From contig DAOVER010000020.1 of assembly GCA_030668875.1 (NCBI GenBank), positions 26,530-58,529 of the forward strand: DNA of 32,000 nt, in the 5' to 3' direction. Origin of the DNA: Candidatus Heimdallarchaeota archaeon (GTDB lineage Archaea; Asgardarchaeota; Heimdallarchaeia; Heimdallarchaeales; Heimdallarchaeaceae). Positions 18,804 to 27,594 of the stretch are shown piece after piece; position 1 is the first letter of the stretch, and every line of letters begins with the position of its first letter. The translations under genes and the position numbers were made by a program. Under the pieces are notes generated by a model. It searched no databases and was not told the DNA's origin. It was given only the letters and a program-made list of their open reading frames with translations.

Positions 18804-20162
18804 TTAATCTCTTTTCTCTTTATATCTTCTAGGCATGCTTGCTGCTGCTCCAGTCATATCATTACCTGGATCTCTGGGATAAGGAGATAGTCCTCCACCT
18901 CTACCTGATACAGAGCTTGAAAAATCTCTGCCATTGCCATCTTTTAGATTATCATGTTCAATTACTTGGTAAATATCTGCAGAACTCTTTAGTCGTGAAT
19001 AGATATATTTGAAATCTGACACAAAGATAGAAAGAAAGGAAAGCCAACTAGTATCCCCAAAATCATCATAAATCTGATAGGTTCTAATAAAAGGAACTTT
19101 TTTGTAAAATTCCACTAATTCAGATTTAGATACTATTACCACTTGAAGTAAATCGGGATTTTCTACAACCATGCAAGGTCGGATGATTTTATCTTCAACT
19201 AATCTGGATTTTAGCCTAAACAATGTTCTAGCTGAAACATCGTGTGATTCTGCAATGGTTTTGATGTCGGGTCGTTTGAAATCAAGTTCACAATTACGTA
19301 AGAGATGAGATAGATAAGGTTGTTTTTCTGAAGAAACAGTTCTTAGTCCAGTGACTCTAACAGAATCAGAGAGCTTCTTTTGCTTGATAAGGGGTTGTTT
19401 CTTCCAATTGTGAACTGATATTCCTTTGTTCAAGATGTCAGGGTTAAAGTACTTTTTCTTTTCTTTAACATAGTAGAAAGAAGGACCATGTTTTTTTCGC
19501 GTCATTATCCCATGAGTGATTTTCAACTCCGGAAAGAGCTGATAACTATCAATAGGTATGGTATTATCTCCAAAATCAATAGAGCGATTAAAAGCGAAAA
19601 ATTCATGTAAATTAAGTGACCTGTAGGAAATCAAACTACCTAGATAAATGCCACGAGAATTCAGGTGTTTTAATGTCAAACTAACCTTTTTCTCGGAGAT
19701 GCCCAAATCCTTAGCTAGTTGGTTATAAAAGAAAGAAGGAGTTTCCCCAAGAATTTCAATTATCTTTTTTTCTAAAAAGCTTAAATTTAATCCATAGCAT
19801 GTACTGTAAAACGTTTGCTCAAAATACTTGATAACGTTGCTTAAAGTCATATCTCGAGAATATATGACATCATGCAACTTTCTCAATTCCGCCCAGAAAT
19901 TCCTGTAATTCACAAATCGCCAAAATTCATTAGAGTTGATTTTATTATTGCTAAAAAAGTATCTATTAAAGGTGTCTGTAATCTTTGATTTCACTCCAGA
20001 AGAGAACTTGGGAAAACTGGAACCGAAGAGATCTGCAACTTTCGTTTTAGAGAAATGACCAATGGATAAACGAAAATCACTAGCTTCAATAGTTCCATCA
20101 AGTAAAGAGGAAATTAGTGTTGATTCTTTTTCATCGAATATGACGATTTTCTTGTTTTCCAT
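18804..20162 (-). CDS. Large Lrp/AsnC-like regulator with two winged-HTH modules and a low-complexity C-terminal tail
   Basis: HTH1 LEKKIIEILGETPSFFYNQLAKDLGISEKKVSLTLKHL; HTH2 RPDIKTIAESHDVSARTLFRLKSRLVEDKII; tail GRGGGLSPYPRDPGNDMTGAAAS. Confidence 0.65.
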   Translation of the reverse strand: MENKKIVIFDEKESTLISSLLDGTIEASDFRLSIGHFSKTKVADLFGSSFPKFSSGVKSKITDTFNRYFFSNNKINSNEFWRFVNYRNFWAELRKLHDVIYSRDMTLSNVIKYFEQTFYSTCYGLNLSFLEKKIIEILGETPSFFYNQLAKDLGISEKKVSLTLKHLNSRGIYLGSLISYRSLNLHEFFAFNRSIDFGDNTIPIDSYQLFPELKITHGIMTRKKHGPSFYYVKEKKKYFNPDILNKGISVHNWKKQPLIKQKKLSDSVRVTGLRTVSSEKQPYLSHLLRNCELDFKRPDIKTIAESHDVSARTLFRLKSRLVEDKIIRPCMVVENPDLLQVVIVSKSELVEFYKKVPFIRTYQIYDDFGDTSWLSFLSIFVSDFKYIYSRLKSSADIYQVIEHDNLKDGNGRDFSSSVSGRGGGLSPYPRDPGNDMTGAAASMPRRYKEKRD

Positions 20163-20561: not shown

Positions 20562-21914
20562 TTATGGTGTGGTTGCAGTTGTATTTCCATTACTAATGTG
20601 TTTATACAGATATGATCCGTTTCCGTTTCCGTTTCCATTGTTACTTCCATATTCAGAAGGAAGATGCTTATTTAGCTGAATCTCTCCAAAACTATTATTC
20701 TTTAGTTTCTTATCAATGCTAGCTAAAACGTTATTGTATAACCAATCTTCATCTATTTTCCAGTATTTGGTGTCCCAACTGAAGTTTTCCATATAGAAAG
20801 GCCACCACATACCGTGTTTGCCAAAGAAGTCGAGTGAGCTAATGGTATAGTCTTTGAAAGTATTCCAAATGATATAATTCAATTTTGTATCGTAATAAGG
20901 TGGAATAGTAAATCTCAAGAAAATGCCATCGTTTAGAAGCTCAAAGCCTGTTTGGAAGGGTGGATCTTCTTCATGCAGAAGTCTAAACAATTGCGCTTTT
21001 TCCTTATTAGGGACATTTCTTATGAGAAATGCTCGAGTAACATGTTGTTCAAAGAGTTTTCTACTGAAATTCCATCTGGGGTTGGTGATAAGATGGTTGC
21101 GAACAACATTGTAGTATTTACGACCAAAATCTACTTTCACATTATGTTCATTACGTGTATCAAAGAATTCGCTTAGATTATTGAAATAGTAACTTTCTGT
21201 ATCAGTTAGCTTTATCTTCTTTCCTAGGTGTTGATAATATTGTCTATAGTGATGTATGAGATCTGTTTGTTTAGTTCTTAAACCGATCTCGTGACCATTC
21301 TTAGTATAGGTAGTAAGATCTCGTAGAAGTAGTATGTGGAGTGGTTCCAGAGAGTCTAATTTTACAGGAGAGGGTAATCTAGGCAAGTCTTCACTCTTTT
21401 CTTCGCGTTTTTGCCAATATGCGACTAGATTGAATATTTCAGGATCTTTTGTATAGTTTGGTAATGGTTCAGGTTTGTTAACCCTATACCCAGTTGCTTT
21501 ATCGACTGTATAGGACTCACAATATTCTTGCTCAACTAAATAGTCTAGATATTTAATAAATAGACCTTTAGCTTCTTCTGGTAAATCAAATACAGCAACC
21601 ATGCCAAATTTTTCTCCATAAAAACGATTGTAGCTTCTAATGTAATCAAAAGAAGAAAGTGCCATCTGTAAGAGAGTAAACTGGTGGAGTTCTGAGATAT
21701 TCATTGTTACAAGATATCTTGTAAGATGTATTCTCTCAGGAACAAATGATGCGATGGGATGATATAGAATTCCTTTCTCTTTTAATGCATTGACGCGCCT
21801 TATCATTGTTTGTGGCGAAATGTTTAGCTTTTGTGCTAATGTGGAAAAAGTTTCGTCTGGATAGTGTTGCAAAACCAATAAGATTTTTCTGTCAAGTATG
21901 TTTAATTGATCCAT
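20562..21914 (-). CDS. Large Lrp/AsnC-family regulator (wHTH plus RAM-like domain, degenerate second module)
   Basis: LDRKILLVLQHYPDETFSTLAQKLNISPQTMIRRVNALKEKGIL is a classic AsnC HTH. The C-terminal (NG)n tail is encoded by (CCGTTT)3 at 20617-20634. Confidence 0.75.
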   Translation of the reverse strand: MDQLNILDRKILLVLQHYPDETFSTLAQKLNISPQTMIRRVNALKEKGILYHPIASFVPERIHLTRYLVTMNISELHQFTLLQMALSSFDYIRSYNRFYGEKFGMVAVFDLPEEAKGLFIKYLDYLVEQEYCESYTVDKATGYRVNKPEPLPNYTKDPEIFNLVAYWQKREEKSEDLPRLPSPVKLDSLEPLHILLLRDLTTYTKNGHEIGLRTKQTDLIHHYRQYYQHLGKKIKLTDTESYYFNNLSEFFDTRNEHNVKVDFGRKYYNVVRNHLITNPRWNFSRKLFEQHVTRAFLIRNVPNKEKAQLFRLLHEEDPPFQTGFELLNDGIFLRFTIPPYYDTKLNYIIWNTFKDYTISSLDFFGKHGMWWPFYMENFSWDTKYWKIDEDWLYNNVLASIDKKLKNNSFGEIQLNKHLPSEYGSNNGNGNGNGSYLYKHISNGNTTATTP

Positions 21915-21958: not shown

Positions 21959-22273
21959 TTTCCAGAAGCAAACTGGAAATAGTAGGGAGATCTGATAAGA
22001 GACAAATGTTTAGAGACCTGGTGAGGAAACTTCGATTTGCCTCATTTTCAGAACTCTTACTAGACCTCGAATTTTGTTTTACGGATAATTGATATCCGCG
22101 GTTTGACCCCTTGCTTGTAAGTTCAATTTATGGTGGATGTACCACCTAACCTCAAATGAAAAACCGTTGCGGGTCTATGACCTCTCTAAGACCCAAGGTT
22201 TTCCTTTCTCGCCGAGAAATTGAGGAAAGGGGGTGGGGTTTTTCTGGCGATCGTGATTTTTTTTATTTTTTTT
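21959..22273. ncRNA. Putative large structured RNA/leader (at least six hairpins) ending in a T-tract on the + strand
   Basis: Stems at 21959-21979, 22022-22044, 22083-22097, 22132-22146, 22171-22194, 22201-22227; long-range pairing 22051-22060/22117-22124; T-run 22257-22273. Confidence 0.45.
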
Positions 22274-22532
22274 AATTAGATATTTGTCCGACAGGTTGAT
22301 CGATTTCTCCATTGACTGGATCTTTGTAGATTTGTCCGACAGGTTGATCGATTTCCCCATTGACTGGATCTCTAACCAGATCGATAGTGTATTCAGAAGT
22401 ATGAACTCCTTTACTATCAATGAATTGATATTCAATTTTATCAAAGTTGGATGTGTTTAGAGCAACTGTGCTCGCAATTACAGCAACTACGCTTAATACT
22501 ATTATAACACCAAATATTTTTTTCGCTTTCAT
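22272..22532 (-). CDS. Small secreted precursor with signal peptide and tandem 16-aa C-terminal repeat
   Basis: MKAKK plus hydrophobic h-region; ends RDPVNGEIDQPVGQIYKDPVNGEIDQPVGQISN; GGTGGA RBS 8 nt upstream and TATA-like TTAAATA. Confidence 0.8.
   Translation of the reverse strand: MKAKKIFGVIIVLSVVAVIASTVALNTSNFDKIEYQFIDSKGVHTSEYTIDLVRDPVNGEIDQPVGQIYKDPVNGEIDQPVGQISN
22282..22371. repeat. Tandem repeat, 2 x 42 bp with 48-bp period, inside the peptide gene
   Basis: 22282-22323 vs 22330-22371, 41/42 identical; the only difference is synonymous (GGA/GGG, Gly) in the 86-aa frame. Confidence 0.95.
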
Positions 22533-22564
22533 TTTGCTTATCCACCAGCTAAATTGAGCTTGTT

Positions 22565-22604
22565 TTACGATTTCTCACGTACTATTTAAGATTTGTTACG
22601 ATTT
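22565..22604 (-). promoter_or_regulatory. Promoter of the peptide gene with direct repeats flanking the TATA box
   Basis: TTACGATTT at 22565-22573 and 22596-22604 (31-bp period) around CTTAAATA (minus strand, 22590-22583). Confidence 0.45.
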
Positions 22605-22840
22605 TCCATTTTCTAGCATTTTTTGGAAAAAAGTAACAAACATATGCCTTACTAAAGGTTCGTTCCTCAATCTATGAATTTATGTCGGAAAATAGTATTA
22701 CTTAGATGATTGTCTAAGTGTAAGGCAACATATGCGTTGGTTTACTTATTTTATAAATAACGAGCTATATGACCGCAATATGTGGGCAATACTGATTACA
22801 CGAAAATTGAGTTTTCTAAAAGAATTGTAGATGATTCTTA

Positions 22841-24013
22841 TTAGGTTTTATAGTGTTTTTTCTTAAGAGCAAATACTAAAGCGCAAAAACTTAATGGAAA
22901 AATTATTGAAATTAATGTGATTGAAGTGCGATTAATATAACCTTCTTCTGACGCCTTAATTATATAATCAGCTGCTAATTCCCTAAATGGAAAATCGCTT
23001 TCATCTAAACTTGAAGTGAACACAGCAACAATATCGTGCTGTGGAATAACCATAATTATTTGTCCTGCCCAACCTAGAGCTAAGTAGGCATCAATTAGGG
23101 GAAATACCTACCATTGATATCCATAATCTGTTCTATCCGATAAATAGATTTTTCCTTCTGAAGCTTGACTGACCCACTCCTCTGAAACAATTTGAGTATC
23201 ATTCCATGTACCGTTATTTAGAAACAAATATCCGCGTTTAGCCATATCTTTTGGCAATAGCTGTAAGCCACTTCAACCGAAGCAAATATCTTGGGGATCT
23301 TCTTCCCAAAAATAACTAGAGAAACCAAGTTTTGAAAAGATATGAGTACTTGCATAACCAAGTGTGGAAATGCCTGTTGCATTTTCAATGATAGCAGATA
23401 AGAGATGTGATCCGCCCGAATTATATTTCCATGTATTTCCTGGTTCGTCTTCCATCGCTTGATTAAGTACGAATTCAACCCAATTAGAACTATCAACCAG
23501 TTGTCTGAAAGTATTTGCAGAATCATAATAAGATATATCTTCATTCCAAGAAATTCCTGAAGTCATGGTTAACAGATGTTCGATGGTTATGTTTTCCTTA
23601 TTTTCTATGTTTGGCACATCAATGTGTCTCAAGAAATCTAGAATTTTCTGATCTACGCTCTCAATATATCCTTCTTCTATAGCTCTACCTATCAGGGTTG
23701 AAGTGAAGCTCTTCGTAACTGAATATACTGGATGTAACGTTTCTGAACTAAATGTTAAATACTCCTCAACGACCAGATAACCGTCTTTTACTATGAGAAC
23801 ACTGTCTACCGCATAATTGTTCTCTTCAATATATTCAAACATTTCAACAATTCTTTCTTCATTCATTCCTGCTTCTTCAAAAGTGGAATGTTGCCATCCA
23901 TCAGTCGGCCAATAGTCTCTCTCAAGACTGCTCTCAGATAATATTATTTGAGTGTTTGATAAAGAAACAATAAACATCATAATTATACAGATAGTGAAAT
24001 ATCTTTTTTTCAA
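22841..24013 (-). pseudogene. Secreted serine hydrolase (beta-lactamase/6-aminohexanoate-dimer-hydrolase-like), disrupted
   Basis: SVTK (SxxK), LLTMTSG and YNS motifs. One 391-codon frame with internal TGA 23273-23275 (..CFG*SGL) and TAG 23108-23110 (GYQW*VF), continuing to LGWAGQ and a C-terminal TM. Confidence 0.9.
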
Positions 24014-26772: not shown

Positions 26773-27135
26773 TTACTCCTGCTGATTTTCATCCATTCCC
26801 CTAATAATTTGTGTTATTATTGGCTTTAACTTCGGGATGTCTTCTTCTATGGTTTCCCATACAACCTCTAGATTAACTCCGAAATATACATGAATTAATT
26901 TATCTCTCAATCCAGCCATCTCTTTCCAAGGTAGTTCATGATGTTTTTCTTTTATCTTCTTAGGTATTGCTTTTGCTGCTTCTCCAATAATTTCAAGTGC
27001 TCTAATAACTGCGAATGAAGTTTTATCGTCAGTTTCAAATTGACTATAATTCATCCCTGTTGTGAACTGTTCAATCTTTTTAATAGATTCTAGTATATCA
27101 TTAAAAAAATCAAAATATTGACGTTTGGGGTTCAT
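26773..27135 (-). CDS. hepT: HEPN/DUF86 (HepT-like) RNase toxin
   Basis: AVIRALEIIGEAAK...PWKEMAGLRDKLIHVYF (RX4HXY catalytic motif). Confidence 0.92.
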   Translation of the reverse strand: MNPKRQYFDFFNDILESIKKIEQFTTGMNYSQFETDDKTSFAVIRALEIIGEAAKAIPKKIKEKHHELPWKEMAGLRDKLIHVYFGVNLEVVWETIEEDIPKLKPIITQIIRGMDENQQE

Positions 27136-27449
27136 ACTTCCACAACCTCCTCAAGAATTTGTTTTCCTATAGTGGGTTTTAGGGCTTCTTTCATAACTAA
27201 ATCTACTTTGACTTGTAATAATTCACTTAGATAGTTTTCTAAACGAATATATTGAAACAGGCTTGGAGTTTTATAGAAAGCGACCAACACATCAAGATCA
27301 CTGTTATCTTTTTGCTCATTTCTGATGTATGAACCAAAAATACCCAGATATTTGACTTTGTACAAATCAGTTATTTCCTGAAAATGATCCTTCAAAATCT
27401 TCAGGAAGAAAGATGCTTCCTCATTTTCTGTTGACTTAATGGTTGTCAT
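27132..27449 (-). CDS. mntA: Minimal nucleotidyltransferase (MNT) antitoxin
   Basis: GIFGSYIRNEQKDNSDLDVLV and VDLV motifs; 4-nt overlap with the HEPN gene. ATG 27449 preferred. Confidence 0.92.
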   Translation of the reverse strand: MTTIKSTENEEASFFLKILKDHFQEITDLYKVKYLGIFGSYIRNEQKDNSDLDVLVAFYKTPSLFQYIRLENYLSELLQVKVDLVMKEALKPTIGKQILEEVVEV

Positions 27450-27594
27450 TCTTCTCACTCTCTACATAGCTTTTTGATATAAAAAGACTTTCGAATATTT
27501 AGACATTCTAGTACAGCTTAAGAATTACAGTATTCTTTTCCTCCTTCTCAAGTGTTTTACTACAAAATAAACAATAAAAGAAAGGATAAAATAT
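27442..27594. repeat. Duplicated promoter/leader segment Y2
   Basis: Copy of 26540-26693 in front of mntA. Confidence 0.92.

Follow-up and report, generated by a model that had tools for sequence, protein, structure and literature searches.

Bacteria and eukaryotes are well known to communicate by means of peptides, and we know of no such system that has been established in archaea. In the RRNPP cassettes of Bacillota and their phages (Rap-Phr, PlcR-PapR, NprR-NprX, AimR-AimP) a small gene for an exported pro-peptide lies beside the gene for a cytoplasmic HTH protein, which has a TPR fold in its receptor part. Plant CLE and CEP precursors carry Pro/Gly-rich 12-15-mers at the C-terminus, sometimes in tandem, and repeat peptides processed by Kex2, such as alpha-factor and the dikaritin precursors, are known from fungi. 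In cyanobactin-type precursors (PatE) a conserved leader is combined with repeated cores and short conserved linkers. Regulatory nascent peptides of the SecM, MifM and VemP type are followed by a gene for a Sec or YidC component, with its Shine-Dalgarno (SD) sequence sequestered directly after the peptide ORF.

Here we analysed a stretch of 32,000 nt from Candidatus Heimdallarchaeota archaeon (referred to as the window), which contains an 86-codon ORF predicted earlier to encode a secreted precursor of two short peptides. The ORF is compared with its short and long relatives, with the gene next to it and with the systems named above. Our literature searches retrieved no description of a module made up of such an exported protein and a double-Lrp protein.

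A small gene with two near-identical tandem units

The ORF (86 codons plus stop) is located at 22272..22532 on the minus strand. Its N-terminal segment (codons 1-25, 22458..22532, minus strand) consists of MKAKK and an apolar stretch of 20 residues and resembles a Sec signal or signal-anchor. It is followed by a variable stretch of about 28 residues (codons 26-53, 22374..22457, minus strand) and by two units, R-DPVNGEIDQPVGQIY (unit 1, 22326..22373, minus strand) and K-DPVNGEIDQPVGQISN (unit 2, 22275..22325, minus strand), the second of which forms the C-terminus. A repeat search of the window revealed two 42-nt copies (22282-22323 and 22330-22371), which are offset by 48 nt and differ by one mismatch. 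Translation showed an 86-aa protein with two near-identical tandem cores, preceded by R and then by K, exactly as described in the original prediction, and the statement that the 48-bp duplication differs only synonymously was confirmed by one synonymous and no nonsynonymous difference in the 14-codon core. The ends of the full 16/17-residue units differ (R versus K at the start, IY versus ISN at the end). Tandem Repeats Finder did not list the 48-nt array, and searches of Pfam and NCBIfam gave no match to the peptide or to its longer relatives described below.

Since about 40 homologues share the same build, with 2-7 units each, the repeat is not a product of chance. Translation, these homologues and the purifying selection acting on the units identify the ORF as a real small translated gene with two near-identical tandem cores. 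The original prediction had also raised the question of read support. The flanks and repeat words were found in four DNA runs of one marine-sediment study, probably the source of the sequence, and the unitig of the shared core has a depth of 41.8 in Logan versus 18-22 in the flanks, which fits two copies. In contrast, the Logan contigs stop within the repeat (the first record runs up to 22311, and record 8 begins at 22342) and none of them bridges the array, so that the copy number of two rests on the assembly and on unitig depth.

Besides this locus the window contains genes for archaeal Nre and for an Arf-family GTPase. Together with the labels of the homologues, these genes mark the host as an Asgard archaeon. 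A gene for a serine hydrolase of the beta-lactamase fold upstream of the peptide gene (22841-24013, minus strand) is split over at least three frames (ORFs of 246, 49 and 70 aa), and relatives have one intact gene of 342-390 aa; the split represents either a pseudogene or sequencing errors. A toxin-antitoxin pair of MNT (nucleotidyltransferase) and HepT is encoded at 26773-27458 (minus strand), and in one relative (L004) the MNT/HepT pair lies directly upstream of the peptide gene.

Short relatives carry two to seven units under purifying selection

Seven small relatives were retrieved by protein query and 33 by profile, and more were found in the fetched loci. These short-form proteins are all unnamed, comprise 49-142 aa and have very similar N-termini; one of them is labelled Heimdallarchaeota, and Heimdallarchaeaceae also occurs among the labels of homologues. 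Four sequences that looked like fused or longer relatives (P0009-P0012) were rejected as unrelated repeat proteins whose scores were inflated by many stretches. The units are spaced by 14-19 residues and have the core [GD]PxxG[YF]PDEPIG or GPV[ET]DEPIG. DEPIG is almost universal, and the DQPVG of the window is among the most divergent versions.

Three sub-groups can be distinguished. In the clade of the window protein a stretch of about 25 residues lies ahead of the units, and K or R precedes each of the 39 units; these basic sites are single K or R and not dibasic. In the second and third sub-groups the units start right after the apolar segment and are joined by PGGAG and GGG linkers, respectively; pooled over both, a basic residue is present at 9 of the 57 units. 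The processing after R/K that had been suggested for the window protein is therefore compatible with its own clade, but in view of the sister-clade linkers it is not the general way in which the units work.

To quantify selection, adjacent units were compared and pooled over 14 genes, yielding pS 0.32 and pN 0.065 (ratio 0.20). Examples of synonymous to nonsynonymous differences between neighbouring units are 10 to 1, 6 to 0 and 22 to 5. This ratio implies that the units are translated and that the sequence of each is maintained by selection.

The expected variation in repeat number among relatives was also observed, ranging from 2 to 7 units. Two assemblies match a third locus exactly except for the deletion of one unit (51 nt), which is either natural copy-number variation or an assembly collapse. 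Four congener contigs (L017, L023, L024, L025) have their first nucleotide about 470-510 nt ahead of the regulator gene that follows the short form. This is the expected site of the repeat gene, so the arrays probably break short-read assemblies and copy numbers may be underestimated. In the peptide gene of another relative (L005:2287-2571) a 22-nt gap in the repeats shifts the frame after unit 1, and the remaining units are readable in another frame; it is either a broken allele or a mis-assembly.

The unit corresponds to the tail of an exported beta-sandwich family

Database searches also yielded 86 matches to a long form, Thor- and Lokiarchaeia among them. Long-form proteins comprise 102-216 aa (typically about 152 aa) and consist of a classical cleavable signal, a domain in which a DLDxDGxEDD loop occurs, and an FDPPGG-xD-[EY]P-[IP]GGGV-type tail. 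Of 300 genomes sampled from the phylum, 94 encode such proteins, each in 1-9 copies; examples are NEF87_002510 of Lokiarchaeum ossiferum and K9W45_02030 of Heimdallarchaeum aukensis, annotated as 'exported protein of unknown function'. In other genera and at paralogous loci the long form stands where the short form does, upstream of the regulator gene. A closed genome of the Loki lineage encodes a membrane or secreted protein of 105 aa with a GGGGGTPG tail upstream of another regulator homologue.

An AF2 model of the long form (pLDDT 87) showed an Ig-like sandwich, and Foldseek and VIA searches with this model returned generic Ig-like sandwiches only. Residues 145-149 of the tail are docked as an edge strand in the model (pLDDT of the block 84-89), which suggests a structural role of the tail in the ancestor rather than a free peptide. 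In the window protein the sandwich of about 110 residues with its DxDxDG..DD..E loop is absent. A multiple alignment placed KGVHTSEYTIDL of the variable stretch opposite ESGxYxFDL of the long forms; codons 26-53 thus seem to be what is left of the final strands of the sandwich.

A paralogous module is present in the same genome (G000, contig C94, 30993-33214; L044:1569-3715). It encodes a 152-aa exported beta-sandwich protein with the tail FDPPGGDPDYPIGGGVDPGP, a double-Lrp homologue of 414 aa and a stand-alone CheY-like receiver (PF00072, 5e-15). For a comparison of the tail with the units, 72 units of other species were turned into a position-specific scoring matrix, with which every six-frame ORF of this genome was then searched. 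The tail of the long-form paralogue scored best (24.5 bits), unit 2 of the window protein was second (17.1 bits) and unit 1 third (16.8 bits), while the background reached at most 15.4 bits. This plain scan replaced a 14-column HMM, which had failed to match anything including the window's own units. An alignment of the short-form and long-form profiles by hhalign covered five columns only.

Because a long form stands in the same position and its tail is the best match to the unit in the whole genome, we regard the window gene as a derived, domain-less form with an amplified tail. As judged by sequence comparison, homology between window gene and long form is shown at the level of motif and position. 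The possibility that the ORF is a truncated version of a longer surface protein had been considered in the original prediction; distant homologues and the paralogue are indeed longer and carry the motif as their tail, but the short form is derived and under selection and is not a truncation caused by the assembly.

A double Lrp/AsnC-fold protein is encoded next to the exported protein

The next gene downstream on the same strand went unmentioned in the original prediction. It is separated from the ORF by a spacer of 357 nt and encodes a protein of 450 aa (20562..21914, minus strand) for which the Pfam matches (HTH_24 and HTH_AsnC), AF2 and Foldseek suggest a fused double Lrp/AsnC fold with the order wHTH-RAM-HTH-RAM. 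The AF2 model (pLDDT 70) comprises a wHTH, a beta-alpha-beta-beta-alpha-beta part, a second helical HTH-like part and a second beta-alpha-beta-beta-alpha-beta part. Foldseek gave the fused double-Lrp protein NirDL as top match (4.8e-9), together with many Lrp/AsnC regulators; matches to LrpA at the sequence level were weak. The Lrp fold also serves enzymes. For this reason, and with NirDL as top structural match, the designation 'regulator' denotes a presumed role.

On every contig with enough context the short form is followed by a same-strand gene for a protein of about 445-480 aa, which has an AsnC-type wHTH at its N-terminus. The partner has orthologues and paralogues in 25 of the 30 genomes of the short-form family. 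For the long form, a regulator homologue is the next same-strand gene in 29 of 30 loci from several families of the phylum, and the remaining locus is cut by a contig end; the pairing is also found in Lokiarchaeum ossiferum and in a Thorarchaeote. Gene order thus shows a near-obligate pairing of the exported protein with the double-Lrp gene, across the phylum and among paralogues. The link between the two may consist in control of the exported protein's gene, in feedback or in sensing, and the adjacency may mean merely that the regulator controls the exported gene. A prediction of a complex between the regulator and peptide residues 53-86 gave a score of 0.00, which carries no weight either way.

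Some neighbouring genes deserve mention. Directly downstream of the regulator the window encodes a second protein of about 452 aa with weak HTH matches (18804-20162, minus strand); it was not retrieved as a regulator homologue at E 1e-20 and is missing at this position in congeners. In Lokiarchaeum ossiferum (L050, 7068-10498) and in the Thorarchaeote (L051, 6755-9031) a large secreted subtilisin with Peptidase_S8 and Big_7 domains adjoins the pair. It is a possible candidate for a processing enzyme, and none such is linked to the pair in the window.

The N-terminal segment is of transmembrane length

The N-terminus of the window protein combines a basic n-region with an apolar stretch of transmembrane length. 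In short forms the apolar stretch comprises 20-22 residues (median 21), compared to 13-16 residues (median 14) in the long relatives, where clear AxA cleavage sites are present. The signal peptide of the original prediction was supported as far as the export-type N-terminus is concerned; given its length, the segment could equally be a membrane anchor instead of a long cleavable signal. By inspection, the domain-less clades have a small residue at position -1 and a small or aliphatic residue at position -3 before the first unit. Export topology and signal cleavage of the window protein are predictions from these features. About 16 subtilisin-type S8 genes are present in this genome, none of them linked to the ORF, and their products could serve as processors of exported peptides.

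Two other ways of export and sorting were considered and dropped. A type IV pilin-like class III signal would have a [KR][GA] cleavage motif ahead of the apolar stretch, and none was seen on inspection. Sorting of the PGF/PEP-CTERM type was rejected since neither a transmembrane helix nor a basic cluster follows the motif.

Non-coding regions around the gene are strongly conserved

Codons 1-25 are near-invariant among relatives, synonymous sites included. In the 84 nt coding for the leader pS was 0.14-0.42, compared to about 0.8 in the adjacent regulator gene. This suggests that the RNA or DNA itself is constrained, or else that recombination has occurred across conserved regions flanking a variable core. 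The leader of one relative was found in a contig of a sediment metatranscriptome.

Conservation extends to both sides of the ORF. In a comparison of six species with synonymous saturation of the regulator gene (pS about 0.8), three stretches proved near-invariant, namely about 130 nt upstream of the ATG, the leader-coding 84 nt and about 200 nt after the stop codon; only the remnant and the units vary. The upstream region (22533..22660, minus strand) comprises the conserved promoter and 5' UTR; by inspection it has a TATA-like TTAAATA (22583-22589) and the SD sequence GGTGGA (22541-22546).

Directly after the stop codon follows a conserved non-coding element of about 200 nt (22053..22252, minus strand), as indicated by conservation and folds. 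Across 14 loci of the genus it has kept the invariant blocks ATCGCCAGAAA-CCCCACCCC-TTTCCTC, CAAGGGGTCAAACC and TTAGAGGTCTA. The inner stem of a nested hairpin varies with compensatory changes around a GAGGUCA loop; this hairpin was seen in single-sequence folds, and RNAalifold on a MAFFT alignment missed this variable structure. Contigs from RNA libraries of relatives, obtained in two studies, cover 22062-22259. The element had no Rfam match, whether gathering or E-value thresholds were applied, and a tRNA search was negative as well. Within the element AUCCACCA (22131-22138, mRNA strand) is perfectly complementary to UGGUGGAU at the SD sequence of the peptide gene (22540-22547), and the 3' copy of this 8-nt stretch is kept in five of the six close species.

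Discussion

Our analysis points to the following function of the window gene. A Sec-type signal or anchor would take two acidic Pro/Gly motifs of about 15 residues (DPxxGxxDxPxG) outside the cell. The motif probably derives from the C-terminal tail of an exported Ig-like beta-sandwich protein of about 152 aa that occurs Asgard-wide, and one orthologous copy in this genus would have lost the sandwich and multiplied the tail to 2-7 units. As the sandwich was lost while the tail was kept, multiplied and selected, the unit itself is likely to be the working part. The units would then have an extracellular role, as a ligand or a signal, and their production would be coupled to the regulator encoded next to them. 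We assign a probability of about 0.5 to this reading, which relies on comparative sequence evidence. In the clade of the window protein the most likely mode of action would be a release of the 15-mers by cutting at the single K or R in front of each unit, and the alternative is a multi-copy display of the units on a membrane anchor. Amplification of the terminal motif fits both uses: a released peptide would be produced in larger numbers, and a displayed ligand would become multivalent. For the window clade we somewhat favour release, which is deduced from the position of the basic residues.

The competing explanations differ in what the exported units are good for. A multivalent protein that is tethered to the surface by a type II anchor and has no signalling role is a possible, though rather doubtful, alternative. 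Here the repeated motif, and in some clades also a terminal hydrophobic strand, would bind a partner, e.g. the sandwich of long-form paralogues by edge-strand complementation, or would be a spacer or adhesive, and the double-Lrp protein would merely control expression. Several observations agree with such a role: the apolar segment is highly conserved and has the length of an anchor (median 21 residues, compared to 14 for long forms with their cleavable signal), the long-form model shows the tail as a docked edge strand, most linkers of the sister clades have no basic residue, and amplification fits avidity. However, small residues at -1 and small or aliphatic residues at -3 are present right before the first unit, K or R stands ahead of all units in the window clade, and the long forms have tails of their own. 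The idea that a long-form gene is decaying here and has left a remnant with no function can appeal to the loss of most of the beta-sandwich and to the frameshift in the repeats of L005. We consider it barely tenable given the pN/pS of 0.20 between units, the same build with intact frames in about 40 sequences from many species, and the conserved promoter and SD sequence.

The conserved nucleotide sequence of the locus raises the question whether the peptide acts during its own synthesis. As in SecM, MifM and VemP, translation and export of the ORF, with its stall-prone units rich in Pro and Asp, would remodel the conserved RNA downstream and thereby set the expression of the regulator. An N-terminal export segment followed by C-terminal units rich in Pro, Gly and Asp would suit this mechanism, as would the extreme conservation of 5' UTR, leader and structured 3' element and the 8-nt complementarity between 22131-22138 and the SD sequence of the ORF itself. 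Nevertheless it is improbable: the regulator gene begins only after the 357-nt spacer and does not encode a Sec or YidC component, the units fill the whole mature part and not just its end, and the ancestor is a well-folded exported domain conserved throughout the phylum, for which a leader peptide would have no need. Even less probable is a multi-core RiPP precursor, cyanobactin-like or other, with cores that are enzymatically modified before or after release. The conserved leader and the repeated, near-identical cores are reminiscent of such precursors, and a generic radical SAM gene was found 1.7-5.3 kb upstream in two congeners. The window has no counterpart of this gene, which is located on the opposite strand, stays below the NCBIfam cut-offs and is nearest to MoaA-type enzymes. 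Pfam searches of the window ORFs gave no YcaO, LanM, PatA/G-type or SPASM enzyme, in line with the original prediction, which had noticed no RiPP enzyme. Moreover, neither Cys nor modification motifs of the Ser/Thr-rich or aromatic kind occur in the cores. A Sec-type N-terminus is unusual for the leader of a RiPP and argues against maturation in the cytoplasm.

If the window product is an extracellular ligand or signal, a more far-reaching scheme can be envisaged, in which sandwich carriers and domain-less precursors of Asgard archaea release DEPIG-type peptides that are sensed, directly or indirectly, by the cognate double-Lrp protein, with the paralogous pairs as separate channels. We put this forward as a speculative and, on present evidence, unlikely extension; sensing by the regulator and any role between cells are conjectures drawn from the gene pairing. 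The module is of interest because the archaeal group closest to eukaryotes has here a gene pair that is spread over the phylum in multiple copies. Moreover, the reduction of the exported protein to a multiplied tail motif in one lineage suggests that the short peptide unit is the working element. With defined 15-mers, a promoter and a regulator, reagents are at hand for testing peptide signalling or cell-cell contact in Asgard archaea, both of which are relevant to their syntrophic lifestyle. The locus has in addition a previously undescribed, strongly conserved structured RNA element.

By descent and position the window gene belongs, according to our comparisons, to an unnamed Asgard family with FDPP-type tails, without having its domain. 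The position upstream of the double-Lrp gene, the type of export signal and the tail motif are shared with this family. The family has the sandwich, whereas the window protein keeps about 28 residues in its place, carries two copies of the tail and has a longer apolar segment.

Among described systems, the RRNPP cassettes show the same arrangement of a small gene for an exported peptide beside a gene for a cytoplasmic HTH protein, and they likewise occur as several paralogous pairs per genome (1-9 copies for the long form) with a fast-diverging peptide part. They differ from the Asgard pair, in which the partner is of the Lrp/AsnC (RAM) fold, the peptide gene precedes that of the partner and no import system is linked; since the partner lacks a TPR domain, the pair is not of the RRNPP type. 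The best hit of a feature search ('Phr family', 0.77) carries no weight, as shuffled sequences attain a level above this score in a third of cases. Plant CLE/CEP and fungal precursors resemble the window protein in build, with a signal peptide (putative in the window protein), a variable region and a Pro/Gly-rich C-terminal motif that is single or in tandem and varies in copy number, but there is no sequence relationship. The similarity to fungal KEP peptides that had been pointed out earlier does not extend to the cleavage sites, which are single K or R and confined to one clade; without dibasic KR sites the window protein is not of the Kex2 type. With PatE the family has in common the conserved leader and the repeated cores with short conserved linkers. 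Maturation enzymes are not linked, however, and the N-terminus is of the Sec type, so the window protein is not a RiPP, and the comparison with cyanobactin-type RiPPs in the original prediction does not extend to these features. In comparison with SecM, MifM and VemP the downstream gene is an Lrp-fold gene and lies at a distance instead of having its SD sequence directly after the ORF. By analogy, then, the window module would work most like the multi-copy precursors of secreted peptides on the one hand and the peptide-regulator cassettes on the other.
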